A stretch of 63,750 nt of DNA, filler included, from Craspedostauros australis (lineage: Eukaryota): the NCBI GenBank assembly GCA_030167865.1. It is 8 parts of 8 records of this genome, joined end to end, with 100 filler letters (N's around TTAATTAATTAA, not from the genome) between each part and the next. Parts side by side here need not be neighbours in the genome. Positions count along the whole stretch, not along the records: positions 24,729 to 38,088 come from JALAGF010005274.1; positions 38,189 to 40,840 come from JALAGF010005275.1; positions 40,941 to 44,228 come from JALAGF010005276.1; positions 44,329 to 53,331 come from JALAGF010005278.1; positions 53,432 to 56,496 come from JALAGF010005280.1; 3 more parts are not named here. One strand, given 5' to 3'. The notes under the pieces were generated by a model. It searched no databases. It was not told the origin of the DNA and saw only the letters and a list, made by a program, of their open reading frames with translations. The position numbers and the translations under genes are program-made. Below, one piece after another: positions 24,673 to 56,496 of the stretch (positions are counted from its first letter, which is position 1; each line of letters starts with the position of its first letter).

Positions 24673-24684
24673 TTAATTAATTAA
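24673..24684. other. Artificial contig linker TTAATTAATTAA in N runs (also 38133-38144, 40885-40896, 44273-44284, 53376-53387, 56541-56552, 59707-59718)
   Basis: An identical six-frame-stop 12-mer is centred in N spacers seven times. Confidence 0.99.
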
Positions 24685-24729
24685 NNNNNNNNNNNNNNNN
24701 NNNNNNNNNNNNNNNNNNNNNNNNNNNNA

Positions 24730-27700: not shown

Positions 27701-29016
27701 TTTTGTCGCCGCGGGCGATCATTTTGTGAGCTCCGCATTGCCATCAAATGGCCGTTGTCGCACATGGTTCGAATTGTCCTTACTTAGGATAATGGTCCAT
27801 GTGTGGCCGTTATAACCGTTAAGTTTGGGTCTCCATTGCGGGGTGATGCACATGGCTTGCATTCCCGTTGTGTGTCCCGTCTTCTTCCTGCGGATGATGC
27901 TCTGGAGTCGTATGGGTCGGCTGTATCAACCAGTCAATTATGTCTAGAAGTGACCCGCCTATGAAAGTACCCATGTGTACCAAATGAGAAGCACAAAGAC
28001 CGAATCATGGACGCAACGAAAATGCCGCATTTTCGATCTGCGCGAACTTTGTCTGTGGCGAAGAGAATGCTTCGCGAAACAGCCACAGCCAACGCGGCGA
28101 TGAACGGCACGCATCTGCTTTTGCCGACGTTGGCAACAAAACGGAAGATCGCGTTGGATACGACTACTTGGGTGGCAAGAGACACCTTCTCCTGACCTCT
28201 CTTGTGTGTTGTCCTGTTGGCAAGTTCCGCTCACGGTAACCTACGATCGTGGAAGATGGTGTTGGTTGATAGTCGTCTGTTTGCTATTTCATTACTTGGC
28301 TACTCCGATCCTCTCGGTGTACGCCCGTTCTCTTGCCCGATGCTCTTGGTGCTTCAATCTGTTTCGTAGATTCGGTCTCCGACTATGAGTCGGTACGTGA
28401 GATGCTCTCTCGTTCCTCTCTGTATTCTCTCTCTCTCTCTCTCTCAACATCGTGTGCTCGCGCTACACGATACTCCGTGTTCGATGTGTACTCCGTATTC
28501 GACACTCCGTTCATTCAGTACTGGCTCCTACTCCATGAGTACTTGCCATTTGAAGTTCACCTTCTGTATCCATGATGCTGATGCCCTTCGGTCATCGGAT
28601 CTTCGCCTCCTGCTCTGACTTGGAGACAGATGTCGACGTGGTGACATGATGACATCCTGTTGACGTCAGTAGGCATCCTTCTGCTCTCCAGATGTCATGT
28701 TCCATTGGTGATGCAGTAGTCTGTCAGATGATATCGTCATCTGAGGTTTAGTTGGGAAGTACCTTGAGATTCTCTTGGTACCATTGATGGATGGACGGAC
28801 GATGTTTCCGATTCTCTCAGAAATCGTCGATTGCAAATTTCCTCCAGAAATTCTGCTCATTTTCGTGTGTTCCATTTCCCCTGTAATTCTGACGAATCAC
28901 AGTATACTATCGACACGAATGTAGTTATACCGTCCAAGTGCGTATGAGAGAATAGCGGGTGAACGATGCACATATACTTGTACATCTCGACATATACTCA
29001 CATGTACATCTCGACA
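24730..29016 (-). mobile_element. Unclassified retroelement-like TE (candidate tyrosine-recombinase/DIRS-order); 5' part only, cut by the contig end
   Basis: Begins on the minus strand at 29016 with TGTCGAGATGTAC, a terminus shared with 38005 and 56416. It has a ~1.7-kb leader, a Gag-like ORF and a second open frame running into the gap. It interrupts the copia integrase exactly at 29016/29017. Confidence 0.7.
25051..27324 (-). CDS. Gag-like ORF1 (757 aa) with an RNase H1 N-terminal/caulimovirus viroplasmin domain and a C-terminal Cys/His knuckle
   Basis: WYVAIDGRRPGVYTSAAEAIAQ...FAEADAYL (26218-26349) fits the hybrid-binding domain pattern. N-terminal C-x-C-x-C-x-H cluster; C-terminal CKHCGGSGKVH...CP. 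Confidence 0.8.
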   Translation of the reverse strand: MTDPPNLSSLLASEASAFASMPPAASVPGIAVETVSSVASGSARSGDMGSDTLLDQVGIGMAIGHVVADDRICLVRLSSKSEDGHTLLCANLASECRRSNHHTLRRDSDRRGLPGVYQCLDTTTLGGAPRRDLIESSHQSRAAYDSTRAAALRDLEAVGKMDITDAAARNDSDAKSVGVVGFDLDTKPAGRPGIDVQPTPPVRIKTNPAGPPPTTQPGASGRTPPVPLMRPVPVVPRPVLSSQHGTHYSPPALATTAADELMHVVRHQTSLNREAMELHQRKSEETTQAMLRALANQQAQITQLLQHGHPSSSLAPAPAPTTDTEWYVAIDGRRPGVYTSAAEAIAQAGTGSTARVVRCASFAEADAYLRASTTTAPIYSQPMSHDRPHPAGATYPGNTSAESQTATAPLPERAPSGSTSMGIEQFLGEDSSKGDKKQIFGEAIDNERRMLKHLAPPHASQEIQTELAKAAIDVTSQPGKVTDERTSIEELASAFGDIRNQTARSAGLIATDSNWRTKXXHALGRIKTSEDLSELAGDFNSIRDDVMTRYLNDVGHILRHGCYTDEQITLYQQGGGWVAVLKLFLTYYHELLLKLQEEAFKTANGWEDSAEVYLEHYAKALFDARNFASSRNLMIFRTYIIVREGARGGWCNLKVLEKFQQRTIGTPGPSSTPKDDTDTTPAETGRKKCKHCGGSGKVHEIRDSGCPFGYLFKKKVAMAKAKQVAKCVNQGEKAADVITRILQEAITKRGGGEEDDA

Positions 29017-31470
29017 TACGTAGATGGACTGCGTACGTTCGGTGAAATAGGCATGGTCCACATCGGAGGACGAACAATCAAGGCGAAGCTGGATAACAGA
29101 TCCAAGCCAGCTATGTTCGTCGGATACGGACAATCGCATGCTAGTGGTGTATACCGAATGATGAATCTAGCTACAACAAGAATCCTGATCACAAGAGACG
29201 TGACATGGATGAACCAGTCATATGGGCAATTCAAGGGTATTACGAATGCCAACAGGTCAGTACTAGTAGACCTGGAAGATGACGACTCTACATCGGGGAT
29301 GCCTTCTCCGAATACTAGAGTAACTTAGGAGCGACGTGAGGACACCATCAAGGGAATGGAGACCGACGACGCAGATCAGAGCAGAGGAGCCGGAATTGAT
29401 ATAGATACAGAAGACGCTGCTCAAGGGCAAGATGACTTGCTCCCCACCCAAGGGGACAATGAATCGTACGATGACAATGACGATGAATCCGGAAGGGACG
29501 ACAAGAAAGGACAATACGAGTCGGCCGAGGACGAGCCAGACGAGGTCCCAGTCGCAACACCTGTTGGGCACATGCCAAGGATGCCGAAGGCTCTCGCAGG
29601 GTTCAATAATTCACCCATTCCTATGGAGGAACGAGACCAAGGATCCAGTGGGGAGTCAGAATCAGAAGAAGGAGAGAATGAGATCACTCCAACTACGACT
29701 ACCACACCATTGGCAACAGGAGGACAGAATTTCCACACGAATTGGTCAACATTCAACAGAGACGTCGCAGGCATGATGATAGACACCACTCATGGTAAGA
29801 TGAGACTCGATGACTTCATCACTGCGAGCCAAGGATTGGATCAACAATCACTCGAAGAGGGGTACGAGCATGCTAATGTCGCAATGATGCTAGACCCTAC
29901 GACATTCGAGGAGTGCTGGGATCATGCAGATCCTGAGAAGAGAAAGAAATGGCGGGAGGCCATCAATAAGGAGTTCGATGATATGACCAGAAGAGGAGTA
30001 TGGGAGAAGATCAAGATGAACCAGATGCCGAAGGATCGGCGGTGCGTGAAGACCAAATGGGTGTTCAAGGAGAAGAGGAACAGTGTGTTTCGTGCCAGAC
30101 TCGTGGCATGCGGATACTCGCAAATCGCAGGAGTCGACTTCTCAGCACACCACGCACCAGTGATACATGACGCAACCTACCGTGTTATGCTCACAATGAA
30201 GATGTTGTTACACCTGGACAGCATCATTATCGACTTTGAGACAGCATTCCTACATGGAGAACTCGAAGAAGAGATCTACATGCGATGCCCGAAGGGCATG
30301 AAGCACGAAGCCGACGAATGCCTGCTACTCAAGAAAACCATCTACGGACTCGTGCAGAGTGCCAGACAATGGAACAAAGAGCTGGTCGACATCCTACTCA
30401 AACTGGGGTTTAGACAGAGCACTGTAGATCCATGCCTCCTGATTCGGGATCAGGAAGGGAGACTGCTGCTGATCGGAACCTACGTTGACGACTGCCTATG
30501 CATCGGAGATGAACAGGAGTTGAAGAGGCTAGTAAGGGATATCAAGGCAGAGCGGTTCGGAGTCAAGGTGGAAGAGGATCTTGAAGACTATCTCAGTTGC
30601 AGGATCATGTTCAACCACGACCACACGAACTGCTGGGTGAACCAACCGCACATCATCAAGAACATCACCGAGACGTTCAAGGACGATGTGATGAAGCTAC
30701 AACGGTACGGTACACTAGGAACACCAGGGCAAGGCATCCAGAGGGAAAGCGACTCGCCCAAGGTGGACAAGGAATGGCACAGCAGATACCAAAGCGGAGT
30801 AGGTATGCTGCTATACTTGGTGAAGCACTCTCAACCCAACATCGCCAACGCAGTACGAGAACTGAACAAGGTGTTGGACAGACCAACAGCTGTAGCATAC
30901 AAGGAAATGCTAAGGGTCATGAAGTTCGTGTCGGACACGAGAGAGTATGGACTGAAGATGAAGCCCAGTCCATTGGAGAACGATGCATGGAAGATTGTCA
31001 TATACACCGACAGCGAGTTCGCTGGCGACAAGGACAATCGCATCAGCGTAGGAGGACACGTCGTCTTACTACAAGGAGTGCCAATCATCTGGAGATCGAA
31101 GGCACAACGCAGCGTGACACTGAGTTCAACGGAAGCAGAGTACGTTGCACTATCGGAGGCCGGAAAGGAGATCCGCTTCCTCACCCAACTGATGAGAGAC
31201 ATCGGGTTGGAGATGCACAGACCAGCAGACGTGATGGTTGACAACGTGGGAGCAATCTTCATCGCTTCCAACCCATCCACATCCGCCAGAACCAGACACA
31301 TCGACATACGACATCACTTCATTCGAGAACTGATTGCGAACAGAGAGGCTAGAGCCTGGTTCGTACGTTCAGAGGACAACATCGCAGACGGATTCACCAA
31401 GAACACGAAGAAGGAGATCTACGACAGACACAAGGGCGATATCATCCAGCCAAGGTCAGAATTGGACTAA
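29017..31470 (+). pseudogene. Copia pol remnant with an in-frame nonsense codon at 29326-29328
   Basis: ORFs 28966..29328 and 29356..31470 share a frame. The TAG aligns with TGG (Trp) in the second copy (GTG ACT TGG at ~38574-38582). Confidence 0.9.
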
Positions 31471-31555
31471 TGGAACAGAAAGAAGGATGGTGGTGATGAA
31501 GGGCAAGGGAGCGTGGAGTCAAGAATGATATATTGTCGATGCGACAATGGAAGGG

Positions 31556-32311
31556 TGTCAGGAATCGGGGGTACGCTTTTACTAAGATACCCATGATTGC
31601 CGCACCTCCCAATAATATCTTCACAACTTGACGAGATCAACTTTGTTGATAACACTCGGACCACCTTGCAGCCTGTCCCCCATCACCCCTCTGTCCATGA
31701 ATGGCATCAACATCAATCATGTCCCGCCATGGAGCCTATCCATGCACCACCGCTGAAATGAGGGCGAACCTATGGTTCGACCACAAGGGATGTAGTCGCA
31801 CATGAACCAAGACTATGGGCGACATCGTCAATATATATTAGACATGTTGATGCGCATCGACGGACAAGGGATCGCTTCTCTGAGAAAGAGAAATGGAGGC
31901 GATGCCCCTATCCGCTCAAGAGCACGAATGACAACGCGACATGGTTTGAACATGACCGGTGAGTATGTGATGATAGCGCAGGAGGAATACTGAGGAACCG
32001 AGGGCCATGTGGGATCGATCAGGCTGAGACCCATGCTGAAGGTACCTGTGCGTCTATGAGAGATGCTGCTCGAATGTAGAAGATGCAAATCACCACGATG
32101 ATGCATGATGAATCTGCAGAAGAGAGCATGAGAGCAAGATGATGAAGCAGATGAAAGCAACCATGAACAAGTGCATGATCATGGTGAACTGCTACGGATT
32201 ACGCTTGTTGTTGAATTGGAATTGAAGAGTCAAGGAGTTTGTTCTCACAGTTCTAAATTGGTACAGATTGATAACAGATTAATCTACTACCTTAACCCCG
32301 GATTTCCAACA
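31556..32311 (+). repeat. Putative 3' LTR (756 bp)
   Basis: Purine tract GGAAGGG directly before TGTCAGGAATCGGGG. The candidate end CCCCGGATTTCCAACA is an imperfect inverted repeat of the start (TG...CA). No second LTR is available to confirm it. Confidence 0.6.
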
Positions 32312-33615: not shown

Positions 33616-34976
33616 ATGGTTTCCTTCGGCAAAGCAACTCTGTTCCTCTCCATCATGAGCTCCGTCATGGGCTTCACCTTGGGCGAAGGTACGCAAAGCA
33701 ATAAGAGATGCTCCAGGCCTGCCGAAGATTGCAGGTGCCCAACAACTGCGTGGATGACCATCCAACTCACATCTCCGTTTGCACCTACATACGTCTACAT
33801 CGTCCATCATCGCTCAATGCATATCCTCCTCCCGCTTCCGCCATCACAATAGAAACTCAAGTGATGATGCAGAAGACCCGCAACCTCAAGGGTGCCGGCG
33901 GCGGCTCCCAATCCAAGAACTCCAAGCAAGTAGGATTCTCGTCAGATGAAGCGGAAGTTGACGCGGAGGCATGGAGGCGCAGCGAAGCTGCTTGGTTCTA
34001 CGGGCATCTTACTCAAATCCAAAACAAGCAGCTCCTCCGGCAGCTTGAGCAGTTTAGTATCATTAATTTGGCGGCAGGAGGCACCATTGCTAACACGCTC
34101 GCAAGTGCCACAGGCTTAGATGCCTGCGTGGCGGGCAATCCAGGGATCGGACGAAACGGACAGTTCACTGAGGTTTGTTGTGACACTCTGAAGAAGCTCA
34201 TCAAGTTTTGGTCGTTGGATCCTGCCATCGACAACACACAACTGGCGAAAATCCAATTGATAGGCATTAAGGGGCAAGTCTTGACAGAAACAGCCTTGCT
34301 GAAGGCAATCTTCGGCCAGTCTCCACTCGTAACCGACGAAGTGATCCAACGTCTGCAAGGGGGGATCCAACAAGGCCTCCCTGGTGGCTTTGACAACCCT
34401 CTGCTCACGACTGGTACGATTGCGACTGGGACACTGACCGACACAGGGACGATTGGCGGCGTGATCAACGATCCGACTGGGCAACGTTTCTTCTTGCCAT
34501 ATGATGCCTCTGCTATCAATATCGGGGATGGATTTACCGACTTCGTGCAAGGCCAAGTTCCTGTGCGACCATTCTTTCTCGAGACGACTGTGATCAACCT
34601 ATTCGCTGGATACTTGAGGAGCGTTGTTGAACGACCTTCCATTGCAGAACTGCTCGGACCAGCCGGGGAAACACCAATCAGTCAAAATCTCCGTCTTACC
34701 GAACGCGAAGTCGTCTTCCTCGTAATGGCGGGGTACTTCATCGCGCACGACAAGGGCACGCTCTTTTTTGATACCTTCTGTGACTTCTTGGAGTATTCAC
34801 GTGCATCGCCAGCGCTCAGCAACTGCGCGATAATCGTCGGCGCAAACCTTGCCGCGATGGACGGTGAGGATGTGAATACGACGAAGCTCATTGAGTACGC
34901 CAAAGCTAACTTCATTGGCATTGCAGGCTCTGATCCATCCATCTGTCCAACTCCACCGGGCTGCTTCGATGATTGA
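33616..34976 (+). CDS. Secreted protein of unknown function, two exons (intron 33689-33852), with an RNL propeptide motif
   Basis: Signal-peptide exon MVSFGKATLFLSIMSSVMG ends at a phase-1 GTACGC donor. A TAG acceptor at 33852 restores the 33708..34976 frame (ETQVMMQKTRNLKG...). Confidence 0.8.
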
Positions 34977-35327
34977 GCTGTCGATCATTGCGCGTCACAT
35001 GGCGATACCAAGGTCATGCTTTCGAATGGCCATGTCGGCAACAAACTTCGCTTGTGGAGTATCCGTAATCTGTTTCCACCGAAATGGACACTGGTAGTTC
35101 TTATCTAGTATTCTATTCTATATCAGGTTGCCTTCGTAGTCTCTCAGTTTCATGGAGCTTGTGTTGCATAACATCATGTAATAGGTGTGATGACTGCTGA
35201 TTGTGGTTTGAATGACATGCCGTGAGCCTGTTGCGTGATCTTCGGACAGATCTGTGGTCAGATCGAGGCCAATCGTCGCTCGCTCTCGTCTCTAACCTGC
35301 TCCCTCTCTAGTGCCTTCAAGCGCCGC

Positions 35328-35361
35328 CTGTAGCCAACGTTTTTGGCTACAGTTGGCTACA
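35328..35361. repeat. 10-bp perfect inverted repeat plus a direct copy (candidate piggyBac subterminal repeats)
   Basis: CTGTAGCCAA (35328-35337) and TTGGCTACAG (35343-35352), then TTGGCTACA again; ~470 bp downstream of the transposase stop. Confidence 0.55.
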
Positions 35362-35826
35362 ATTGGATCACAAAAAACTGCTCTGTAGAATGTAGTACAT
35401 TTTATACGTAAGTCCCGAACAAAAACAGGCCAGAAACAGCATCAACCGCGGTCAAACTCTCCGCACTCAGCTCGTGTGCGTGTTCCTGTGCTCGTACTAC
35501 CATTGTAGCATAGTATATTGTTTATATATACTATCCTGAAGTTTGGTGACTGTCGCTCTCTTTCTCGGCGAGCAATGACACGATACGTCAAGCACCCCCA
35601 TCATTCACGAATGCAATTGGGTATTCGAGACGTGTTTGGGCACCCCAGACACGTTTGGACTCATCAAAAACATCACCTCCACATCCCCTCCTCACAATTT
35701 CGTTCACGATGAATCGCCAACACCTTGGCAACAGATGACAGCACAGTCCAATCAATCAATCAATCAATCATTTGATGCCCTCTTCAGATGCATACGGATC
35801 ATATTGTATAACAGTGTATTTATGGA

Positions 35827-38004
35827 TTAGTTTGCATTTCCCTCGTTGTTTGTGGCGTGTGTGTGGAAGCATGTGCTGGTGTTCCCTTTCTTCAAAACTG
35901 TTGGGCAGCACCATACGAGCGTTTCAGGTGCAGATGATGGGCAATGTTCGCAGATGAAGCCCACAAGTTTCTTGCAGGTGATGCATCTTCCTCTTGCTGA
36001 TCTCTGTCCACGTCTCAAGCGCCCTTTGCTGTCCTTGTAGACATTTGACAGCTGTTTCTGTGCTTTTACAAGGTGATGATCGCCAATTCGGTATGGTGAT
36101 TGCTTCTGTTCCTGTTGTGTTTGGCTGTTGTTGGTACCGCTGTCACTGTTGCTGGTGTTGTTGTTGGTTGCGCTGTTGGTTGGCTCGTTGGATCTCTTCG
36201 TCCCACCGTCCACGTCATCGCTGGCGTGCCCTTGTGCCAGAATAGATGTGGTTTCCAGACACCGTGGCGTGGCATGTTCGTCGTTGAAGATCATGTCCTC
36301 CGCAAGCATGTTGATGAAGGTTCGCAGGCTTAGTTGTTTATGCCTGTGACGAGCCCCAAGATGATACGTATAAGCCTTCATTGCATCCACGACAGTGAGG
36401 GCGAACAAAGTCGTAACCAGGCGGAAATATCCGTCCCTCGTCACCCAGATCCTCTCAAGGCCCAACACATCTTGGCGGACATGGTTGTGGGTGTCCACAG
36501 CGTTGGAAGCGCCGAAATACTTACTTGCCACCTCGGGTCTTGGAACCTCCTTCATTCGATGCCTGCGTTCGTCATCGATCCATTTTGCGATGTAGGGCGT
36601 GGATGGCCCCAAATGACCTGATCCAGAGGAGAACACAAATGGAATCACAGACACGCGCGAGTATTTGTATCCCATGGCATATATCTTGGTTGGGGAGTCA
36701 TTGCCATTGACATCCCCATCATCATGGTTGCGTTGCAATAGTAGCTGTGTTCCAGAGGGCCAATCGCTCATCTTTTCTTGTAGAAACTTGAGGGGGAAGC
36801 CGGCAGACGAAGTCTTGATGATGCCAATGAATCCTGATTTGGTCTTTGTCGCGATTTCCAAGCACGTCTGCACAGAGGCGAACCATGAATCCCCTAAGAA
36901 GATGCTGTTGGGGAGGGCGAAGTCTGATGTGTCGATGTGGATGTTGTTGCGCCCGATGTCATGTGTTGCCAGAGCCATGCGCAGAGAACAGGCAACAGTT
37001 GCCTTTCCGCAATCTCTGACGTGATCAGCCTGGTCCATCTCTCGCTTTCCGCGTTGAATCTCTAAATGAAGCATGATACCGGTTTCACTATCGGCAACGG
37101 TTTTGAACTCCACCCCAAGCGGTGCCGGCTTGCGCGGAATGTGTGTCAGATGGGGAAGGTTTCCGGTGGGCGACAGACGGGGCTTATATGCAGTCATGCT
37201 TTCGTCCATGACTTTGACCTGTCCTGGAATGATGGTGTCGCGCCGACGCTTGTTGAACAGTTCGACCCCAGGTTGGATTTGCCACCACTTATCGTCATGT
37301 TGCCTGGCCGGGTCTGAGAACAAGTATGGGATGAAGTGCTCACGGATGTGTCGGAAGCAATGGAAAGGCATGTGTGTCGTGACATTTCTTACCTTGCAAA
37401 AGCCTTCGTTGATCCTGTCGCCCCAGAGCTTCGTGGTCGAATCCAGCTTCCCCACAAGCATGATTCCAAAGAACACCCACAGTTCGCGCTCAGACACAGG
37501 GATATTGTTTCGCCTGCTTCCGACATCAATTGCGCCTGCGATGATGTGCCTGTTGAGAGCGCCAACTTGCAGTTTCCAATCACCAGGCCATAGATGTTGC
37601 ACCAGTCCCAGGAGGTTGATGCGGTCACGATTGGTGTCGTCTTCCAAGCGTTTCTCGCTGAAGTTGAAACCCGCAACGCCCAGCTTGGTTTGAGGCTCTT
37701 CGTCGCACTGCTTAATTGATTTGTCATCCACCACTGTCCATGACCGTGCATTCCTCAGCTTGCCGACCGTGACTGTTGTACCCATCAATTGATTCTTCTC
37801 CTCCATGTGCGTGTATCCTGGGGACTCTTCTTCACGTCGCATGACGTAGTCGAATTCGTCCCCAGTGAGCAAATCGCCTGTACTCAGGTCGTAGGCTGCA
37901 TGAGGGTTATCTGTTGAGTCATCCTTGTTGTTCATGGGGATTCCTGCCTCGGACTCATCTGCATTTGGGTTGGGGATGTCCATGTCTGCACCATGCCTGG
38001 TCAT
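35827..38004 (-). mobile_element. piggyBac-like transposase (DDE_Tnp_1_7 type) with C-terminal Cys-rich domain; 5' end interrupted by an insertion at 38005
   Basis: Catalytic motifs VMDESM, IPRKP..LG, FLGDSWFAS and NAVDTHNHVR; CRD RGRCITC....CEHC...CC...CFHTH. The first 17 aa of the track ORF come from the inserted terminus. Confidence 0.92.
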
Positions 38005-38088
38005 TGTCGAGATGTACATGTGAGTATATGTCGAGATGTACGAGTATATGTGCATCGTTCACCCGCTATTCTCTCATACACACTTGGA
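38005..38088 (+). mobile_element. Second copy of the TGTCGAGATGTAC terminus, running into the contig end
   Basis: 84 bp that are the reverse complement of 28933-29016, with two mismatches and a different flank. Confidence 0.92.
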
Positions 38089-38188
38089 NNNNNNNNNNNN
38101 NNNNNNNNNNNNNNNNNNNNNNNNNNNNNNNNTTAATTAATTAANNNNNNNNNNNNNNNNNNNNNNNNNNNNNNNNNNNNNNNNNNNN

Positions 38189-40840
38189 TCACACGGCGAC
38201 GCAGCTGGAGAACATCATTGGCACGAAGTCAAGGGAGCCAGCGTGTATACTGTTAAACGGAAAAATCCCGAAATATGCAAATGACCTGCGTGTGTTCGGT
38301 GAGATGGGGATGGTACACATCGGTGGACAGGCTATCAAGGCCAAGCTAGACGACCGTTCCAAACCTGCCATGTTCGTGGGATACGGAGAGTCGCACGCGA
38401 AAGGAGTGTACCGCATGATGAACCTTGCTACCTCGAGAATCCTGATGACTCGAGACGTAACATGGTTGAATAAGTCGTATGGAGAGTTCAAGGGTATCAA
38501 GGATGCCAACGTATCCAGAGTGATGAACGCAGACGACGACTCCTCATCAAGAGACTCGTCTCCAGAGAGAGGAGTGACTTGGCTTCGTCAATCGGACAGT
38601 ATGAGTAATATAGAGACCGATGACGATGAACAGCACAGCAGAACCGGAGAACAAGGAGATTCAGAAGATGCTGCGCTAGAGCAGGACGACCTGCTACCCG
38701 TCCAGGAGGATCAGGAACCAGACGATGACGTCGGCGATGAATCCAAAAGGGACGAGGATGGAAGGAGTGAGGAAAGAACGGTAGAAAAAGCACCGCCCTC
38801 GACTCCAGTCGCAACACCTGTTGCGTACGTACCGAGAATGGTCAGAGATCTCGCAGGGTATAACAACTCGCCCGTTCCTAAGGAGGACAGAGACTACGGA
38901 TCCAGCGAGGCGTCGGAATCTGACGATGAGAAGCAAGGGACTGCCCAAGAGACAGAAGCCGAAACAGCGGCGACAGGGGGGCCGAGCTTCCATACAGACG
39001 GGTCGATGTTCAACAGAGACGTCGCAGGGATGCTGATAGACACCACTCACGGAAAGATGAGATTGGATGATTTCATCGCTGCGAGCCAAGTAACGAATGA
39101 CCGAGTCAGACCCGAGCAAGCAAGCGTAGCTATGATGCTAGACCCTACCACCTTCGAAGAATGCTGGGACCATGCAGATCCCGAAAAGAGAAAGAAGTGG
39201 AGAGAGGCCATCAATAAGGAGTTCAACGATATGACCAGAAGAGAAGTATGGGAGAAGATCAAGAGGAACCGAATGCCGAGAGATCGGCGATGCGTGAAGA
39301 CCAAGTGGGTATTCAAGGAGAAGAGGAANNNNNNNNNNNNNNNNNNNNNNNNNNNNNNNNNNNNNNNNNNNNNNNNNNCGTAGCTATGATGCTAGACCCT
39401 ACCACCTTCGAAGAATGCTGGGACCATGCAGATCCCGAAAAGAGAAAGAAGTGGAGAGAGGCCATCAATAAGGAGTTCAACGATATGACCAGAAGAGAAG
39501 TATGGGAGAAGATCAAGAGGAACCGAATGCCGAGNNNNNNNNNNNNNNNNNNNNNNNNNNNNNNNNNNNNNNNNNNNNNNNNNNNNNNNNNNNNNNNNNN
39601 NNNNNNNNNNNNNNNNNNNNNNNNNNNNNNNNNNNNNNNNNNNNNNNNNNNNNNNNNNNNNNNNNNNNNNNNNGCAACCTACCGCATCATGCTCACTATG
39701 AAGATGCTACTGCACATGGATAGTATGATCATCGACTTCGAGACAGCATTCTTGCATGGAGAACTCGATGAAGAGATCTACATGCAATGCCCAAAGGGCA
39801 TGAGGCATGAAGCCGATGAATGCTTGCTGCTCAAGAAGACCATCTATGGATTAGTGCAGAGCGCCAGACAATGGAACAAAAAGCTGGTCGACATTCTACT
39901 CAAGTTAGGATTTCGGCAGAGCAAAGTGGATCCATGCCTTCTGATTCGGAATCAGGAAGGGAGACTACTGCTGATAGGCACCTACGTCGACGACTGCCTA
40001 TGCATTGGAGAAAAGGAGGAGTTGAAGCAACTGACGATCGACATTAAGGCTGAGCAATTCGGAATCAAGGTGGAGAACGACCTCGAAGACTACCTCAGCT
40101 GCAAAATCATCTTCAACAACGACCAGTCGAACTGCTGGGTGAACCAGCCACACATCATCAAGAACATCATCGATACATTCAAGGATGACGTGTTGACTCT
40201 ACAACGATACGGAACTCCAGGAACACCAGGACAGGGTATACAGAGAAACAGCGACCTACCCAAAGTGGACAGTGACCGACACAGCAGATACCGAAGCGGA
40301 GTAGGTATGCTGCTATACTTGGTGAAGCACTCGCGACCAGACATTGCGAATGCGGTGCGCGAACTTACCAAGGTGCTAGACGGACCATCAGCTGCAGCAT
40401 ACAAGGAGATGCTGCGAGTAATGAAGTTCGTATCGGACACGAGGGACTACGGACTACGGATGCAACCAACCCCGCTGGAGAACGACGCATGGAAGATCGA
40501 GATCTACGCAGACAGCGAGTTTGCGGGAGACAAGGATAACCGGATCAGTGTCGGGGGACATCTCGTCCTACTGCAAGGGGTGCCCATCGTATGGAGATCG
40601 AANNNNNNNNNNNNNGTAACTCTCAGCTCAACAGAGGCGGAATACGTCGCCCTGTCAGAAGCAGGAAAGGAGATTCGCTTCCTCACGCAGCTAATGGAGG
40701 ACATCGGCTTGACGATGACCAAACCAGTGGATGTGTATGTGGACAATGTGGGGGCCATCTTCATTGCCTCCAATCCGTCGACATCAGCGCGAACGAGACA
40801 CATCGATATACGACATCATTTCACTCGGGAGCTGATAGAC
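38189..40840 (+). mobile_element. Second, diverged Ty1/copia copy (IN C-terminus, RT, RNase H), gapped
   Basis: Collinear with 29017-31470 (AMMLDPTTFEECWDHADPEKRKKWREAI, YVDD, ADSEFAGD) with many synonymous differences. Confidence 0.95.
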
Positions 40841-40940
40841 NNNNNNNNNNNNNNNNNNNNNNNNNNNNNNNNNNNNNNNNNNNNTTAATTAATTAANNNN
40901 NNNNNNNNNNNNNNNNNNNNNNNNNNNNNNNNNNNNNNNN

Positions 40941-43821: not shown

Positions 43822-44030
43822 CTTGATTTATTTAGACGTCATTCGAATTAAATAGACGTCATTTGATTTATTTAGACGTCATTTGATTTATTTAGACGTC
43901 ATTTGATTTATTTAGACGTCATTTGATTTATTTAGACGTCATTAGAAATAAATAGTCGTCATTAGAAATAAATAGTCGTCATTAGATATATTTAGACGTC
44001 ATTCGATTTATTTAGAAGTCATTCGATTTG
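43822..44030. repeat. AT-rich 20-bp minisatellite, ~10 units (ATTTGATTTATTTAGACGTC)
   Basis: Direct tandem periodicity of 20 nt with variant units. Confidence 0.95.
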
Positions 44031-44363
44031 TTTCACGGGACACGCCACTTGGCTCAACTGACTAGATCGACTAATCAAGGTTCTCGCCACATCGGGATCG
44101 ACGAAGCGGGAACAGACCAACAGGCCACGAATGCAAAGGCGGGCCGATGAGAGCAACACATGGCGCTCGCGCGTTCGTTTGGAATGGCCAAGCCATGCAA
44201 ACCACTTCACAACATCAAGTATCAACGTNNNNNNNNNNNNNNNNNNNNNNNNNNNNNNNNNNNNNNNNNNNNTTAATTAATTAANNNNNNNNNNNNNNNN
44301 NNNNNNNNNNNNNNNNNNNNNNNNNNNNATGCCACACAACTTGGCGAGACCCTGCACTGATGC

Positions 44364-47300: not shown

Positions 47301-50300
47301 CGCGAATGTTGGAAGGACGACGATGGTTGGTTGTGGATTCAAAGTGTTGAATCGGAGTCGAAGTCTGCGCAGTAGGTAGTTGGCATCCACCTTGAATTGG
47401 TGTAAGTCAATGGAGAGAGAGTCGCTGCCTTCACGTTGGAGGGGTTCAATTGTGTGCAAGCAATCGACGACAGCTTGTGAGAATGTGATGATTGATGCAG
47501 AATCAGGGTGTAGTTCCCTGGTTGTTGCCTCCTGTTCAATTTCTTCCATGCTAGCCACTGCGGGACAGAAGTAGTAGTCATCGGTATCTTCGTCGTCTAA
47601 CCATGCGGCTTTGCCTCCCATGCGCGCATACGTGAATCGCTTTGGTTGTTTGCGACTTCTCGTGCTTCGAGGTCTTACTGGCGTTGATTCAAGCTTAGGC
47701 GTGGTTGGTGTCGTGGAGCCGGTTTCAGTTGGTGTCGGATCTGAAGGTGGTAATGGAGTTGCCGGTCCCGAGATTGGTGTCTCTCGGAGAGGTGAATCCA
47801 ATTGCGGTTGAAGTGTTCGCTGGTCCGGTGACTCTATAATAGGATCAGGTTCCGGTTGCTCATTAGCAGCTCCCTCTGTCAAAGACATTTGCCTGTTGGC
47901 TCCCTCTGAGACTGGCATTGGAGGGGCGAGAGTATCACTCATGAGACCCGGGATCTGTTGTGTCAGTGGTTGCGACTCTTTCGCCAATACCTGTGGCGCT
48001 CTTTCACGAACGGTTTGTTGGTTTCGCGTCTCGATTGCCGGTGGTGGAATATGGTCGTCGTTGCGTTGTAACCGGTTGTGGTCTCGCGTGTCTGACGCGA
48101 AGATGTCGTCCTGCTCCATTGACTCCACATCGTCGTCGTCGAATGGTTATTGAAAGGTAGTGTCACCAAACATGCGAGTCCATTCTTCTGATTGATAGCT
48201 TGGAAGTTGCTTCAAGTCGGTAGCAATCGTTGCGAACCAGTCATCGAACACAACATGGAACTGAGGTGTGATTGAACCTGTCCGTGGTGATAGGACCAGA
48301 GGTACGGTTGAAGCATGCTTCGTGGAGAGACCCATGTTCACGTATCTTTCTCCTCTTGGTTCCCATCGAGGTATCTTTCATCCGTCGGCCAGTGCTTTGT
48401 TAAGGACATAGACTGGGCTGCCCCATACGTGCAGGTTGTGAAGTTGCTTGAGGGGGAGACGAATGCGTGACAGAACATCGTAAGGTGTGAGACCTGTTGC
48501 GGGGTTAGGTACACGATTGTAGATATACGCGGCATGCACTACGGCCATTGGCCACAGTTGAGCGTCGAACATTGTTGGCCAATGAATGCTTTGATGCATC
48601 ATCATGGTTCGGGCCATTGATACAATTGTTCGAATGCTTCGCTCGGCGATTCCATTGTGATGATGTGCGCCGACACCTGCGAATCGATGGACTTGATGGA
48701 ATATCTCAAGGTGTTTGGAGTATTCGGGTGAGGTGAAGGCAGTTGCGTTATCCGATAGATAGGATCGCACAGGGACTCCCACATCTCGACACATCAGTTC
48801 GAACCGTTCCTTGGCTTCGAGGGTNNNNNNNNNNNNNNNNNNNNNNNNNNNNNNNNNNNNNNNNNNNNNNNNNNTTCGAACCGTTCCTTGGCTTCGAGGG
48901 TAGCGTGCGTGGTTAGCGCTGCTACTGGCTCCACATGAATGTATCCGGAGGCGTGATCAACAAAAATGGCTCCACCTTTGTACATTTCGTTTGGATCGCC
49001 TTTGCCTCGTCCTGAGAAGAGGCGTCCTGGCGTTCGGCCGACGAAGTGGTCCACTGATACTTGTTGTCCTGGGAACAAGTGATCGGTGCGCAAAACTCCT
49101 TGTTTGTCACGAATGACATGTTGAGTTATTCCTGGTGAGGGGCGACGGTGCAACTTTCCGAATTGGCATGCGGCGCAGAGCGGAAGGCTTGTGACCTTTG
49201 CCGCAGCTGTGTGCATCTTTCTAGACGATTCTGACCCAGTGAGTGCACCCGAACGCAGCAGGAACTTCACTCGACTGAAAGATAAATGTCCGAGACGATA
49301 GTGCCACCGAAGAAGTTCCTTTTGCGGTTGGGTGAGGTTTACGTTGTGGTCCGATACGGTAGAGACGATGGACGTTAGTGCAGCTGGCACATCATGGATG
49401 TTGTCGGCGCTGTAGCCGACGGATGTTGGCAGCCTCGTGGATTTCTTGTAGTTCGCTACGATTGCATTGCGATCGTCGCTTCCCAGGATTCCGCTGAGTT
49501 GGCAGGAGGACTTGTCGAACACGATCGTTTCTCCCTGATACTCTTCGAGAAGACTGGAAGTGCTGATTAGCTTGACCTTCGATTCGGGAACATGGAAAGC
49601 AGGCAGTCGCAGTTTGCGAGGGCTTCCAGTTACATCAAGGACGTACCACTCGACAGTTCCCAACGCATTCACTTGGATTTTCTTGAGGAATCCATTGAGA
49701 AAGGTCGGTCTTGGTGGAGGACTTGGAGTAGAGCAGAAATCGTTGAGGTCATTAGTCACAGAAATTGATGCTCCGCTGTCCCATACAAGTTCGAATGGAG
49801 CATCGGGCGAGAGATAACTCTCAGCTTTAGCTGGCGATGCGAATGCATTGCGATTGGAGAAGTAGGAGGCTAGGCCTTGCAAAGTGAGTAGTGCTGGCAT
49901 GTCATTGTCACATTGTTGCTTTTGTTTTCGATCATACATCAAGTCGATTCCGCGAGTTGGGTACAGGCTCCAGAGATTTCGTGAGATGGATGAGGTGCGA
50001 CCTTCCTGGCGGGGCAATTTTGCTGTCGTGAGTGTTTGGTTTTTACCATAAGTGGAATTTTTCGATTGATTCCAGTGACGACATTTTGATCTGTGATTGC
50101 GAGTTTTGGTCCGAGCTTGGGGACGCCACACACGTTTTGTTCGTGGGGAGTTCACCTTCGACGCGTTCACTGGTTTGGGTCCAGTTGGGTCAAGGCTTTC
50201 CATCACGAGGTCGTAGAGACTGCGTTTCACAGCCCCATTGAAGAGTGTAGGACGTTTGTGGACTTGCTTGAACCGTTCTTTGACTCGTGCCTTGTTATAG

Positions 50301-52210
50301 ACTAGGTCAGTAGAGTTGATTGCGTCGGGCCTTCGTGGAACGTTCGCGTGGAGGAGTAGTAGAGTTACGGCGATTAGCATCCAGGCGTTGACTGCCACGA
50401 TGTGCCACCCATACTCTACTCCGATGGTGATGACTTGGAGTGAAGCGAAGAGGAGAACCATCCCAACGATGCTACCGAAGTAGTTGAAGGAGGTGAAGAG
50501 GTTCCAGATGAGGGACCACCAGGTGTCTTCATCTTGGCTGGAGGCGGCTGTGAAGCACGTCCACGCAGCCATGTCGATGGAGAGATTGTCCTGCTTGGGA
50601 ACGTTCTTGCCCTTTGCCTTCGCCTTGAACTTGAAGTTGTCCTGGTGACTCTCGGTATTGTGCGAGAGACGCCAGCGACGGCACTTGGCGCACCACATGA
50701 ACGTTTTGTCGTTGACAAGCTTGCGCTGTGGTTCACTGGGTTTGGGAGCTTTGGACGACCAGCCCTGGCCGACGTTGCGTTTGGCGTCGCGTTCCTTGGG
50801 CTTCTTGGAGTTGTTCCTCTTTCCGTCGTTCTTGGAGAAACCCTTGTGTTGCTCGAGGACGTTGGCGCTTGGATTTTGAATGGCGTTGTTGGCGTACGAG
50901 TACCTGGGCACGTTGCTATCTTTGGTACGCCTGATGGCGTGCCAGCGATTTCCGCGCACTTCGTTTTCGTACGACGACTCGGCCTTGTTACAGATAGCCA
51001 TCCATGTGAGGTCTTTTGCGGCAAGCTGGGGGCGAGCGTGCTCGTATGTGAAGACAGGGAGACGCATGAGGATTTCCTCAAGGTCATCCTTCATCACATA
51101 GAGAGGACGTCGGTACTGTTCACCAGACCGGATCTGTCCTCCCGCCTGGAGGAAGGCATCGAGGATCGTTCGAAGGAGACGGAGGTCGAAGCGACCAGCA
51201 TCGTCGAGGCGCTTGCAGAGGGCACGAAGGTGGACCGCCATGAGACCAACGTTCTCGTTTGGAAAACGTCTGCAGTTGACTTCGCGGATCTTGGCTGCGA
51301 GAGCGTCTTGCTCGTCCAAGGAGTTGGCGGAGTTGCTGTTCATGAACTCAACGAAGAGGGTGATGAAGTTATCGTGGAACTTCGGCTCGATTCGGTTCAT
51401 GAGCTGGTCTTCTAGACTTGGATCAAGGCTGTCGCGGAAGAATACTGCGGCCGTCCAGTTGTTCTGGACGTCGTAGTGATCCCACTTCAGATGGTACTCA
51501 TTGAAGTGCTTGGTAGCGTCTTCGAGAGTGAAAGCGGCTGGAGAGTCAAGCACACAAGTCATCTCTGACTCTGCGTTGCTGTCAGCGATGTACGCCATGG
51601 TGAGGAGTCCAGTTTTGGCCATGTGGTTACGCACCAAGCGNATGAACTGCTGGATGTTGCCTCCCTTCTTGAACTTGTNGGCGAGTCCTTGCTCTNGCTT
51701 GGACTGGTTGGTGGAGTCAGCACCGTTGTGGAGGATTCTCTGTTGTTGAGAGTTGGTCCACCTGGTCTGTGACTCGTCTTGGAGGCCAGTCCACTGCGCG
51801 TTTGGTGCGCCTGCGGTCCAGGGTACCCAGTTGCGTCCTTGCTTGAGGAGACCTCCCATGATGGGAACGGTTGGTTTCCCAGAGAGGTCATCGTCGTCGT
51901 CACTGTCCTCGCCTGACTTTCTGCTCTTCTTGGGCATGGGCGTTTCCATGTCGAAGAGGCTGTCATCGAGGAAGGACTGGTCCGTCCGGGTTCGTGTGGC
52001 GCCGACTGATCGGCTGCGCCCGAGACCGGAGCGGCTTGGTGTCGCAGTGGCTGTTGCTGCTGCTTGGGCAGTGGCTATAGCCGCGTTCGCTGCTTCTGCA
52101 GCGGCTTCGGCCGCCAACGTCGCCTGTGTGAGGCGGGTGTTTTCGACTGTGATCGCTTCGAGCTGTGCTTGCAGCTCTTCCAGCGTGGCAAGGGTTGTCT
52201 CTTCCGCCAT
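44364..52210 (-). mobile_element. CoDi-type (diatom) Ty1/copia retrotransposon: gag-PR-IN-RT-RH, PPT and putative 3' LTR; 5' LTR not in view
   Basis: CCHH knuckle WCAKCRRWRLSHNTESH; protease WDSGAS; WHYRLGH...CAACQFGK; IN SVDHF/SDN/NGIAER; RT YVDD; RNase H TEIALSTMESEY, ADIFTKGL. PPT GAGAGGGAG at 44817-44809. Confidence 0.95.
44892..52210 (-). pseudogene. CoDi gag-pol polyprotein with two in-frame stops (48378-48380 TGA, 48147-48149 TAA)
   Basis: Reading through gives LADG*KIPRWEPRGERYVNMGLS and FQ*PFDDDVES in one frame. The gap at 48825-48874 is an overlap, with the same sequence on both sides. Confidence 0.9.
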
Positions 52211-53807
52211 GATGGATAGCGGGGACTTCTCGAGTAGTCTTCGGACTTCGAGGGGATCGATCTGTTTGCCTTCTCTTGCTCTTGCTCGGCTTCACTTCGT
52301 TAAGAAGGTGCGCACTGAAGTTCGATGCAGGCTTTGAGAGGCTCGTACTCGGTCAGCGAGTGTGGTTATAGCTTGCTTTAGCAGAGGCTACTGAAGTTCG
52401 ACCTTGAGTCGCTTACCTTCAGCTGGGACTTTTGTCCTCTTGAGTGGCTCGGTTTTCGAGCGTTGGGGGTCTAATTTCAAATCAGATGCATGCGATGAGG
52501 ACTTAGTCCTTTGTTGGAAGCTCGGTCTGCGAGCTGTGCCTTTTGGCTTGGTCTCAGAGAGACTCTTGCAATCGGTTGGCAGAGGAAGATGCTCGGTGGA
52601 GTTGATTTGATTAGAGAGTATTTGGCAACCACTCGCAGCTACCAGTTAGGATTCAGGCGTAGTCAGCGCGAATCGGTGGAAGATGTCTCTTGGATCTGCC
52701 AGCTTCGGGATAGCCGTGTGATGCAGTTCAATGTCGAAATTCCCCGTAGTCCCAAAAGTAACGTGCTCCTGTAACGCTCAGGAGTGATCGATCATGCGCT
52801 TGCCACGTTGACGATTGGGGGGTATTTGTTGTTTCTGTACTCTATTTTGGTTCAGTCCCGTACAATCGGGAATTACTGATGTCACACATTTCGACACCCT
52901 CCCTAATTCGCGATTTGTACCCGATGATTGGTTGGTTGGTTGTTGTGCTTGTCCGCCTCTGTGTGTTCTTCTGGGGTCGTTGGGCCTTCAGCTTCTCTCT
53001 TGCACTCTGCTTGAAACCGTTGTCACGTTCCTTTTTTGTATACCGCTGATGCAAGCGGTCGCCCTCCCAGGTCTCGATGTTCCACCTGCGGGTTGCTCTG
53101 CACTTTTTGCTCTCGTTGTATCGTCGTTCATCTTTTTNNNNNNNNNNNNNNNNNNNNNNNNNNNNNNNNNNNNNNNNNNNNNNNNCGGTCTGATTCTTCC
53201 TCAGTCAACTATTTCGCTCTCCCGGGCGTAAGCCACAGGTTTACGTTACCATGTCGAAATTCCCCGTAGTCCCAAAAGTAACGTGCTCCTGTAACGCTCA
53301 GGAGTGATCGATCATGCGCTTGCCACGTTGANNNNNNNNNNNNNNNNNNNNNNNNNNNNNNNNNNNNNNNNNNNNTTAATTAATTAANNNNNNNNNNNNN
53401 NNNNNNNNNNNNNNNNNNNNNNNNNNNNNNNCATGCACTTGTATTCTTGCAGACAGATGCCTTCACATATGTAGTCTCTTTTGGAGGTAGAGTGCCTGTC
53501 CATTTGTTGCTCAATCGTGTGTACTGGTGGTAGTACAGACAATTCGGTCACCGGTCAATGGGGACATGAAGGGAAAATACCAATTTTCAGCAATTTTTCA
53601 GTGACATCATGGTATATTGCAACTGGAGGCATGTCTTAGCCTTGTCCTAACCATGTCCGTAGTATGTCTTGGGAAATCTGCGGATGGGAAAATGCTGACA
53701 TGCAAATCCGCGGAGGGAAAATTGCTGACACGAAAATGTGAACATGTGTCGACGCGCAAAAGCTGGGAAGCGTCGGTGCAAGGAAGCCGATGTGCTGACA
53801 CTGAGAT

Positions 53808-53901
53808 GCACATGTGGAGGTGCAACTGATGAAGTGCGCATGTGGAAGTGCAACTGAAGAAGTGCGCATGTGGAGGTGCAACTGATGAAGCGCGCATGTG
53901 A
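53808..53901. repeat. 28-bp tandem repeat (GCATGTGGAGGTGCAACTGATGAAGTGC) inside a block duplicated at 54316-55012
   Basis: Three units plus a partial here; two units plus a partial in the second copy (~54582-54647). Confidence 0.85.
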
Positions 53902-55863
53902 AGAACAGCTGATGTGAAAAGGATGACATGCGTATGTGCAATTCTGACGTGCAGATGATGACATGCATGCGTTGATCTGTCCGAGCGCTGATGCAGTTGT
54001 GCACTTGCTGACGCGCACATTATGACACNNNNNNNNNNNNNNNNNNNNNNNNNNNNNNNNNNNNNNNNNNNNNNNNNNNNNNNNNNCCGACAAGGCAACC
54101 ACCGAACAACAAGAAGATGTCATCCAGGATGACAAGGCACGAACATCAACGAGAAATTGCGCGCATGAAGCACCAAAATGCGATCCCACCACAAATTGTG
54201 CATGTTTCGTAATTTCGTAGTCGCGGCACCGACAGCACACGAATAATGCATGCGGTCTGCAGTGGNNNNNNNNNNNNNNNNNNNNNNNNNNNNNNNNNNN
54301 NNNNNNNNNNNNNNNATTCGGTCACCGGTCAATGGGGACATGAAGGGAAAATACCAATTTTCAGCAATTTTTCAGTGACATCATGGTATATTGCAACTGG
54401 AGGCATGTCTTAGCCTTGTCCTAACCATGTCCGTAGTATGTCTTGGGAAATCTGCGGATGGGAAAATGCTGACATGCAAATCCGCGGAGGGAAAATTGCT
54501 GACACGAAAATGTGAACATGTGTCGACGCGCAAAAGCTGGGAAGCGTCGGTGCAAGGAAGCCGATGTGCTGACACTGAGATGCACATGTGGAGGTGCAAC
54601 TGATGAAGTGCGCATGTGGAGGTGCAACTGATGAAGTGCGCATGTGAAGAACAGCTGATGTGCAAAAGATGACATGCGTATGTGCAATTCTGACGTGCAG
54701 ATGATGACATGCATGCGTTGATCTGTCCGAGCGCTGATGCAGTTGTGCACTTGCTGACGCGCACATTATGACACACAGGGAAGTGACATGACGACGCTCA
54801 TGTGCACATGCCGAGATGTTCATACCGGTACGCCGACAAGGCAACCACCGAACAACAAGAAGATGTCATCCAGGATGACAAGGCACGAACATCAACGAGA
54901 AATTGCGCGCATGAAGCACCAAAATGCGATCCCACCACAAATTGTGCATGTTTCGTAATTTCGTAGTCGCGGCACCGACAGCACACGAATAATGCATGCG
55001 GTCTGCAGTGGCAGGCAGTGGTCGCACAAGCCGTCCATCAACACGTGCACGCCTCTGTGACGGTCAACAACCTGATGCCTGATGTGGGAATGTGTTTCCC
55101 CGACTACCGGACCTCGCCTCCCTCCGCCTGCGACAAGCCACGAAGAACTTGTTGTTGTGTCATAGATGTATTCGTTGTTCACCCATGCATGTTGTAGAGA
55201 ACGAGTGTGTAGAAAGGCCATGAGTCCGATTTCCCAACCGCGTAGAGTATGTACTGTTGCCACGCCCACGATTGCGTGTCACACCTGCATTTGCGTTGAT
55301 GCGCACACGTCATACAATAGCAGCTTTCTCACACAGGAAGAACGGAAATGACGTTGTCTGCCAAACCACCCCAAAGGATATGAATGACTTGCCGTATGCT
55401 TGTTGCACAACTGACATGGGATACTCTAGACAGCGTTTTACGTGCAGCACCGCCAACACCAACCAGTGTCGTTGCATGACATGATGTCAACGAACGTCAT
55501 ACGAGAGCAACCATCAAAGTGACGAGAGCTGACATCATTTGTGATAGCGACACTGATTGTTCTGCAGAATAGTAGACGTCACCAACCAGCACCCACTTGA
55601 ACCGACATGCATGCAACGATCTTTGAACGGCAATGTTGTCATCCCTGTTCCGTACGCAGCCGAAGATCAGAGCGCCAGAAGGCATTTGTGTAGAATCCTA
55701 CAGCCACATTCGTTCATTCATACTGTGCGATGCTTTCACCATGTCTGCCGCATGCAATTTCCCACAGTAATCTGGTAGGCCACCAAGCTGTTGCGTTGCC
55801 GTAGTGAATGCACAAAGTCTGACGCAGGTATGTTCTCACAAAATAGCAAGGTGTCTACAAATT

Positions 55864-55890
55864 AACAACAACAACAACAACAACAACAAC
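55864..55890 (+). repeat. (AAC)9 microsatellite abutting an ATG
   Basis: Read directly from the sequence. Confidence 0.95.
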
Positions 55891-56410
55891 ATGGCCAGAC
55901 CGTGGAAGCGCACGGCACCCGAGGTTGTGGAGCTAAAACGCATGATTGCCGCAGGTGACATTCCAAAAAAATGGTCTCCTGCCTTCGTCTATGACAAGTT
56001 CGAACAACTTCACGTTTTCAACCGCAATAACTTTTCCCGGAACTACAAAAACTTGTGGGTGTCGCACATGGAGGAGGTGAAGGAAGCAGGTACGTGTTTG
56101 TGTCGACATTGGCTGGTGGCATTGATGTGCTGTGTATGCCCTTTCATCTTTTCGCTCACACAGTTGCACAGAAGACACGAAGGCAAAGAACACACCAGGT
56201 GTAAAAGAGTACATAAAACACAAAGAGTACCTTAAATCCGAAGTCGGCTGGGCTGTCTCTGTTCCCCCGTCCCACTTTCTCAAAACTGCTTCTCAATCCA
56301 ACATTGCGTCTCCCTCCACCAATCCAACAGCAACTCTCCAATCAACAGAACACCCAATGACTCCACCACGTCCGAATCAAGCAAGGATGCGTGCGACAAG
56401 AACCAACGAG
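55891..56410 (+). CDS. Spliced gene with a small helical (Myb/HTH-like) N-terminal domain, possibly a transposon accessory protein; intron 56090-56171, second donor at 56411 interrupted by an insertion
   Basis: MARPWKRTAPEVVELKRMIAAGDIP...PAFVY...F.RNNFSRNYKNL. A phase-1 GTACGT...CACAG intron joins the 56132 frame, which ends at GAG|GTAAG. Confidence 0.55.
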
Positions 56411-56415
56411 GTAAG

Positions 56416-56496
56416 TGTCGAGATGTACATGTGAGTATATGTCGAGATGTACGTGTATATGTGCATCGTTCACCCGTTATTCTCTCATACGCACTT
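56416..56496 (+). mobile_element. Third copy of the TGTCGAGATGTAC terminus, running into the contig end
   Basis: 81 bp matching 38005-38085 with three mismatches and a third distinct flank (GAGGTAAG|TGTCGA). Confidence 0.92.

Follow-up and report, generated by a model that had tools for sequence, protein, structure and literature searches.

Here, we describe three copies of one short terminal sequence in a 63,750-nt stretch of DNA from the alga Craspedostauros australis (assembly GCA_030167865.1; "the window" hereafter means this whole stretch at its full length). We propose that the 81–84 nt which they share probably form the 5′ tip of a retrotransposon that is young, uses a tyrosine recombinase (YR) and belongs to the DIRS order, with the gene order of the Ngaro elements. 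An initial annotation of the same DNA had suggested integration by a recombinase from a GTAAG|T join at one of the insertions. Recombinase integration is indeed the best reading; its support is not this join, but the gene content of the relatives of the element's first open reading frame (ORF1), in which ORF1 is followed by a Pol frame with a reverse transcriptase (RT) and, in the one contig that extends beyond this frame, by an ORF3 with a predicted Cre fold.

Three copies of one terminus

The window consists of eight scaffolds joined by seven N44-TTAATTAATTAA-N44 linkers (24629–24728, 38089–38188, 40841–40940, 44229–44328, 53332–53431, 56497–56596 and 59663–59762), with additional runs of N inside scaffolds. 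Since the linkers join unplaced scaffolds, adjacency across a linker carries no meaning. Copy A of the terminus lies on the minus strand at 28933..29016, where TGTCGAG begins at 29016, and it contains two 17-nt direct repeats spaced 24 nt apart. Copies B (38005..38088) and C (56416..56496) lie on the plus strand and are cut by the scaffold linkers at 38089 and 56497, respectively. In an alignment of the three, the similarity is lost exactly before TGTCGAG, and the flanks of A, B and C (...CTACGTA|, ...TGGTCAT| and ...AGGTAAG|) are mutually unrelated. Variation is confined to 4 of the 81 columns common to all copies, with one base private to A, one to B and two to C, and the pairwise identity amounts to 97.6% over 84 nt for A and B and to 96.3% over 81 nt for A and C. 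Based on the private bases and on this identity of 96–98%, A, B and C are separate, young copies. The initial annotation had placed three distinct copies at these coordinates and strands, with a precise TGTCGA boundary, and the alignment bears this out. It had also considered the family to be young and to end contigs, in agreement with the identity between the copies and with the position of two of the three beside a linker. The high copy number that it also proposed is not supported by three copies.

The 13-mer TGTCGAGATGTAC occurs exactly six times in the window, twice in each copy at a distance of 24 nt. If up to two mismatches are allowed, there are 10 matches against 1.55 expected, a number that none of 100 shuffled sequences reached; the four near matches contained in it (two mismatches) lie elsewhere in the window and compare with the 1.55 expected for all matches.

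B (84 nt) and C (81 nt) are short because their scaffolds end at the linkers. An exact repeat of 81 nt also occurs at another scaffold end (52731–52811, identical to 53251–53331), and the length of 81–84 nt was therefore probably set by the assembler, not by the element. An 84-nt 'A' repeat that ends at the breaks of B and C was dropped as a candidate feature, since this exact repeat suggests that the assembler was limited by its k-mers. Could B and C then be assembly artefacts, that is, repeat k-mers misjoined to unrelated ends? Both stand at scaffold ends, and near-identical duplications next to gaps are frequent in this assembly. We nevertheless regard this explanation as very improbable: B and C have private bases, unexpected of a copied consensus, and the junction of copy A is internal to its scaffold, which extends from it for 4.3 kb in one direction and for 9 kb in the opposite one.

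Gene content of the element and of related loci

Copy A is the sole copy that continues past the terminus, on the minus strand for ~4.3 kb up to the linker. Its 5′ non-coding region of 1,692 nt, terminus included (27325..29016, minus strand), has a (GA)n run near 28430–28450 and no long ORF. It is followed on the same strand by ORF1 (25054..27324), a Gag-like frame of 757 aa with its stop at 25051–25053 and an NNNN at 25765–25768. ORF1 matched no Pfam family at E ≤ 0.01 (at E ≤ 10, only Chorismate_bind at the noise level of 0.028), and a word-index search returned no relative of it. With HMMER, 274 relatives were found in the representative library at E ≤ 1e-3, including 109 at E ≤ 1e-10 and a best value of 2.4e-48. 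Ten of them were checked; all had metagenome or assembly collections as their source, and all were unnamed or called 'hypothetical protein', bar one with a misleading label.

Alignments of the ORF1 family revealed three features: a hybrid-binding domain, a conserved helical domain of ~320 aa and a CxxC..H..C knuckle. The hybrid-binding domain, of the RNase H1 N-terminal type, was assigned by a fold match to residues ~326–374 (26203..26349, minus strand). In a structural model of residues 310–757 (pLDDT 84.1), it was matched by Foldseek to the hybrid-binding domain of human RNase H1 (3bsu_A) with a TMt of 0.84 and an rmsd of 1.3 Å over 46 columns (prob 1.00, E 0.13). Pfam does not call the domain in the ORF1 of the window itself, where it is seen by fold; Cauli_VI was called in 9 of the 20 ORF1 relatives scanned. 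The helical domain and the C-terminal CxxC..H..C (CCHC) knuckle occupy residues ~426–745 in the alignments (25090..26049, minus strand). The helical domain had no Foldseek match at E ≤ 0.001, and in a wide search with VIA-align the best hits (Z 5.9) were generic helical bundles, rated as uninformative by the program itself.

Downstream of ORF1, an open frame of 109 codons (24729..25057, minus strand) overlaps the ORF1 stop, reaches the scaffold linker and is probably the start of the Pol frame, ORF2. Its match to the N-terminal positions 30–106 of the ORF2 profile, which is collinear with the expected place, scored 7.4 bits when the frame, picked after a tblastn hint of E 1.2, was searched by itself, at Z = 1 and without filters. 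None of 203 controls (200 shuffles, one reversal and two other frames) reached this value, the best of them scoring 0.9. The Pol-like start would speak, weakly, against a Gag-only element. It thereby bears on the possibility that some or all copies are non-autonomous, either as a Gag-only derivative or as solo terminal repeats, mobilised or left by full elements elsewhere. Indeed, ORF1 is the only gene of the element recognised in the window, and no more than 81–84 nt of B and C are visible. Precedents are on record in the sections concerned of two reports: solo AB repeats of Ngaro elements in Cafeteria (PMC8547959), and long terminal repeat (LTR) elements of Ectocarpus with only a Gag-like ORF, a zinc-finger protein of ~400 aa (PMC3145265). 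Given the frame after ORF1, with its weak resemblance to the start of a Pol, we consider a non-autonomous origin quite unlikely; moreover, it would alter which copy is autonomous, and neither the kind of element nor the mode of integration.

What follows ORF1 where the DNA extends farther? With a 10-sequence ORF1 alignment, six related metagenome loci were found. Four of them (L002, L004, L005 and L006) extend far enough past ORF1, and in each the next frame belongs to one common Pol family; the other two have no or nearly no DNA downstream of ORF1. The family has 12 long relatives of ~1,200 aa in the word-index collection. RVT_1 was found as a weak match in the ORF2 of L002 (E 1.3e-7), and also in the ORF2 of a further locus, L007, and in 6 of 6 long Pol relatives. 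The middle part of the Pol profile matches the RTs of foamy virus and Ty3, and motifs resembling RNase H can be made out by eye after the RT. No integrase (rve) or protease family appeared at E ≤ 1 in any of the seven Pol relatives scanned, and viral contigs searched with the Pol alignment held no relative.

The N-terminal part of the Pol profile resembles a cytosine methyltransferase, M.HhaI (residues 108–318, E 7.5e-5). Such a head of ~350 aa begins the Pol of the related elements (the frames L002 3036–5060 and L007 2351–5728 and proteins P0156–P0167). Pfam reports nothing for it, and its consensus shows, by eye, no conserved Pro-Cys; judged by its sequence, the methyltransferase-like head may be inactive or have another role. 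In another locus, L001, an ORF of 858 aa (200–2776, minus strand), rich in Cys/His clusters and without a match to any Pfam family, lies upstream of the ORF1 relative on the opposite strand, and it may be another mobile element.

The recombinase was found in L007, a contig of 7,627 nt that carries ORF1 (3–2147), Pol (2351–5728) and ORF3 (5598–7130) on one strand. The ORF1 of the window matches that of L007 with E 2e-22. L007 contains no terminal repeats and begins inside ORF1, and its genome bin has one copy only of the element. Both L007 and L008, which have the RT and Cre-like recombinase of a eukaryote-type retrotransposon, are filed in bins labelled bacterial, into which eukaryotic DNA was likely sorted by mistake. 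No Pfam domain is recorded for any of the 67 relatives of ORF3. Its model (pLDDT 88.3) has Cre as the best Foldseek match (4crx_A, E 7.5e-6, prob 1.00), over 357 columns and both domains. There were 32 matches at E ≤ 1e-3, and all among the matches listed are tyrosine recombinases (Cre, Tre, XerH, lambda Int, Tn1549 Int and archaeal Xer). The conserved residues fit the pattern R-E-K-HxxR-H/W-Y, with R280, E283, K321, H410/R413, H445/W448 and Y461. As modelled, the L007 ORF3 is thus predicted to fold as a Cre-like tyrosine recombinase.

These loci bear on two other classes of element. An ordinary LTR retrotransposon of the Ty3/gypsy, copia or Bel-like kind, with a DDE integrase and a target duplication of 4–6 bp, might have the terminus as the 5′ end of its LTR. 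The tip opens with TG, ORF1 comes after 1,692 nt of non-coding DNA, and the solved RTs nearest in sequence to the related Pol are those of Ty3 and foamy virus, all as an LTR element would have it. It is the absence of rve and protease from the seven related Pols and, in L007, the Cre-fold ORF3 directly after Pol that make an LTR element unlikely in our view. No second LTR copy is seen in the 4.3 kb, an observation of little weight as the element is cut, and tRNA genes, looked for in the window for a comparison with a primer-binding site, were not found. A Crypton-like DNA transposon, with a tyrosine recombinase and no reverse transcription, is extremely improbable, as a Pol with RT follows ORF1 in all five loci that reach beyond it (L002, L004, L005, L006 and L007); in its favour, Cryptons occur in stramenopiles including a diatom, have no terminal inverted repeats (TIRs) and carry terminal direct repeats of 5–6 bp, according to the part of PMC3212892 that deals with them.

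We therefore retain a YR retrotransposon as the probable identity of the element. Of the features that define the DIRS order, a Pol with RT and RNase H is present in the relatives, and the window has its first ~80 Pol-like residues only; a tyrosine recombinase in place of a DDE integrase is present in one related locus, L007, and the window copy is cut before this gene. Further marks of the order are ends in the form of split direct repeats (A1...B1A2B2) or of inverted repeats with an internal complementary region, and insertion that leaves no target-site duplication. The Ngaro order of Gag-like, RT/RNase H and recombinase frames is seen in L007. The lack of a methyltransferase domain that is typical of Ngaro is not: the Pol head is of the cytosine type and N-terminal, unlike the adenine type of DIRS1/PAT.

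Several points weigh against this identity. In default profile searches of all six frames of the window, ORF1 alone was found, with no RT and no recombinase. The tail of copy A matches Pol with only 7.4 bits, in a frame chosen after a weak tblastn match. The link to a recombinase runs through relatives that are ~26% identical in ORF1, and ORF3 comes from one locus. Moreover, ORF3 was not recognised by Pfam, PDB sequence and PDB profile searches, its assignment resting on the predicted fold and the motif pattern. A tip that starts with TG and continues into 1.7 kb of non-coding DNA would also be given by an LTR. Finally, each insertion offers one junction, with no 3′ end and no empty site; that there is no target-site duplication is what we infer.

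Insertion sites and integration

The initial annotation held that each of the three insertions breaks a gene, which we can confirm for copy A only. Copy A interrupts a copia pol remnant (29017..31470, plus strand) with an integrase SH3-like domain followed by RVT_2. The flank opens inside the SH3-like domain PF25597 (profile positions 7–69 of 73, E 3.2e-12 in Pfam), and a sister copia copy (38189..40840, plus strand; 73.6–80% identical), which serves as a stand-in for the empty site, extends ~25 homologous codons farther upstream. The truncated domain and these extra codons confirm that the copia integrase is cut. An in-frame TAG at 29326–29328 of the interrupted copia replaces a TGG of the sister copy, so that the remnant is also broken by a point change.

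For copy B, the proposed disruption of a piggyBac ORF is not shown. The transposase frame that adjoins it (35827..38004, minus strand) runs without a stop for 725 aa from the junction and has a nearly complete DDE_Tnp_1_7 domain (profile positions 30–348 of 349, residues 165–541 in Pfam), and the flank codon next to the junction is an ATG. Because of this ATG and the near-whole domain, the insertion may be at or before the start codon, and a cut ORF is not required. No inverted repeat was found in 35000–38004 that pairs the DNA past the stop of the piggyBac ORF with the last 100 nt before the junction. The absence of such a TIR pair weakly favours an insertion inside the piggyBac element, though it is compatible with either reading. 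Copy C had been placed in the GTAAG intron donor of a gene. Its flank holds two short ORFs beside the junction (55891..56415, plus strand; ORF, Pfam and Atlas searches), for which there is no Pfam family at E ≤ 1 and no Atlas match, which leaves this placement unsupported.

Does the element prefer other transposons as targets? Two of the three insertions are in transposable elements (TEs), namely copia and piggyBac. In the small scaffolds (24729–63750, the element excluded), ORFs with TE domains take up at least 14,388 of 33,290 non-N bases (43%), and unplaced scaffolds are enriched in repeats by selection. Against such a background, a minimum of two insertions out of three would fall in TEs with P = 0.40. 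With three copies only and this background, no preference for TEs is shown, and the landing in copia and piggyBac is ordinary nesting in repeat-rich DNA, without evidence of targeting.

How might the element integrate? We propose that the copy in the window would encode Pol and recombinase beyond the scaffold end, and that the element would be transcribed and then reverse-transcribed, with the hybrid-binding domain of ORF1 possibly holding RNA/DNA hybrids in the replication complex. The cDNA would be circularised, and the Cre-like recombinase would join the circle junction to a chromosomal site, with no duplication of the target. As candidates for recombinase-binding or crossover sequences, we point to the two TGTCGAGATGTACA repeats of the tip. 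Copies B and C could be full elements or solo terminal repeats. At the junction of copy A, the sister copia reads ATCCCGAAA and the element tip ATCTCGACA, which agree in 7 of 9 positions; P is ~0.0013 for one pre-chosen site, and this one site was noticed post hoc, in a stand-in for the empty site that is only 74% identical. The match hints that the crossover uses a sequence pre-existing in the target. We also consider a bolder scenario, which is rather unlikely, in which the family would be a widespread, undescribed marine-protist lineage of recombinase retrotransposons that may integrate via an unusually long core, similar to TGTCGAGAT, already present in the target. All three proteins, i.e. 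the Gag with its hybrid-binding domain, the Pol with a methyltransferase-like head seemingly without Pro-Cys and the Cre-fold recombinase, would in this scenario escape standard family models. If true, some TE sequences would, by virtue of such a long pre-existing core, be favoured as sites of insertion.

Further observations concern the surroundings of the insertions. Pairs of segments with 98–100% identity flank N gaps or scaffold ends at 86–712 and 763–1389, 60833–61286 and 61337–61790, 39125–39280 and 39379–39534, 54087–54265 and 54833–55011, 58025–58101 and 58152–58228, and 52731–52811 and 53251–53331. They look like unmerged overlaps of the assembler or haplotype copies, not like biological tandem repeats. 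The first, large scaffold carries ordinary host genes for an ankyrin-repeat protein (10021–12183), a sigma-70-like factor (18050–19468) and a DUF6824 protein (20661–22274). These genes suggest a photosynthetic protist, DUF6824 being typical of diatoms. Gaps at 45897 and 48825 split a third, more distant element of the copia type with gag_pre-integrs and RVT_2 (44892–52291, minus strand), and an open frame of 423 aa without a Pfam family (33705–34976, plus strand) sits in the DNA that separates the copia remnant from the piggyBac copy.

Comparison with known recombinase elements

The nested insertions themselves are ordinary repeat DNA. The family to which they belong explains the ends of several small scaffolds in this genome, and the terminus together with ORF1 provides an annotation handle on repeats that Pfam-based pipelines leave as 'unknown'. 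Its relatives in metagenomes (274 for ORF1, 12 for Pol and 67 for ORF3) are unnamed or called 'hypothetical protein', and a curated description of the ORF1, Pol and recombinase families would aid TE annotation in marine protists. The hybrid-binding domain in a Gag-like protein and the cytosine-methyltransferase-like head of Pol are of interest for the handling of retroelement cDNA. Our literature search found no report that joins a hybrid-binding domain with tyrosine-recombinase retrotransposons and, for DIRS or Ngaro elements in diatoms, nothing beyond mentions as RepeatMasker classes; it covered main texts.

Cryptons, including the CryptonS elements of oomycetes and a diatom, share with the present family a tyrosine recombinase, lack TIRs and have short direct repeats at their ends; as characterised in the relevant part of PMC3212892, they have no reverse transcriptase, in contrast to the family described here. 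DIRS-1 of Dictyostelium is a recombinase-based retrotransposon, as we propose for our element, and clusters in repeat-rich heterochromatin (PMC3266345 and PMC7192593, in the parts devoted to it). Its ends are inverted terminal repeats, complemented by an internal complementary region, and its RNase H is followed by a domain that resembles an adenine methyltransferase; neither trait was seen in the DNA analysed here. The same account of DIRS1-like elements has them integrate via a short sequence common to the circle junction and the target, without target duplication (PMC3266345).

The gene order is that of the Ngaro elements, e.g. of the stramenopile Cafeteria burkhardae, where the account of their structure in PMC8547959 gives a Gag-like ORF1, an ORF2 with RT and RNase H and a recombinase ORF3 without a DDE integrase, as in L007; the Cafeteria elements have terminal repeats in the arrangement A1-[ORFs]-B1A2B2. 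Some of the Cafeteria types mostly insert into mobile elements, type 1 with 91% of its insertions in endogenous virophages, a choice of target that ORF1 is suspected to guide, as stated in the same part of that report. Their recombinase matches PF00589, whereas Pfam misses both ORF1 and the recombinase in the family described here. ORF1 further differs from that of Ngaro by its RNase H1-type hybrid-binding domain, and the related Pol starts with a part that resembles a C5-methyltransferase; Ngaro elements are described, in the passages of PMC3266345 that treat them, as being without a methyltransferase domain. In this last respect, the family recalls SymbioDIRS-Dnmt3, from a different alga, the dinoflagellate Symbiodinium. 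The methyltransferase-like part is weak here (E 7.5e-5 to M.HhaI, Pfam silent and no conserved Pro-Cys by eye). SymbioDIRS-Dnmt3 likewise combines, in the description given in PMC5890265, a cytosine-methyltransferase domain and a divergent RT that fits Pfam poorly in one Pol ORF, with the recombinase in an ORF of its own.

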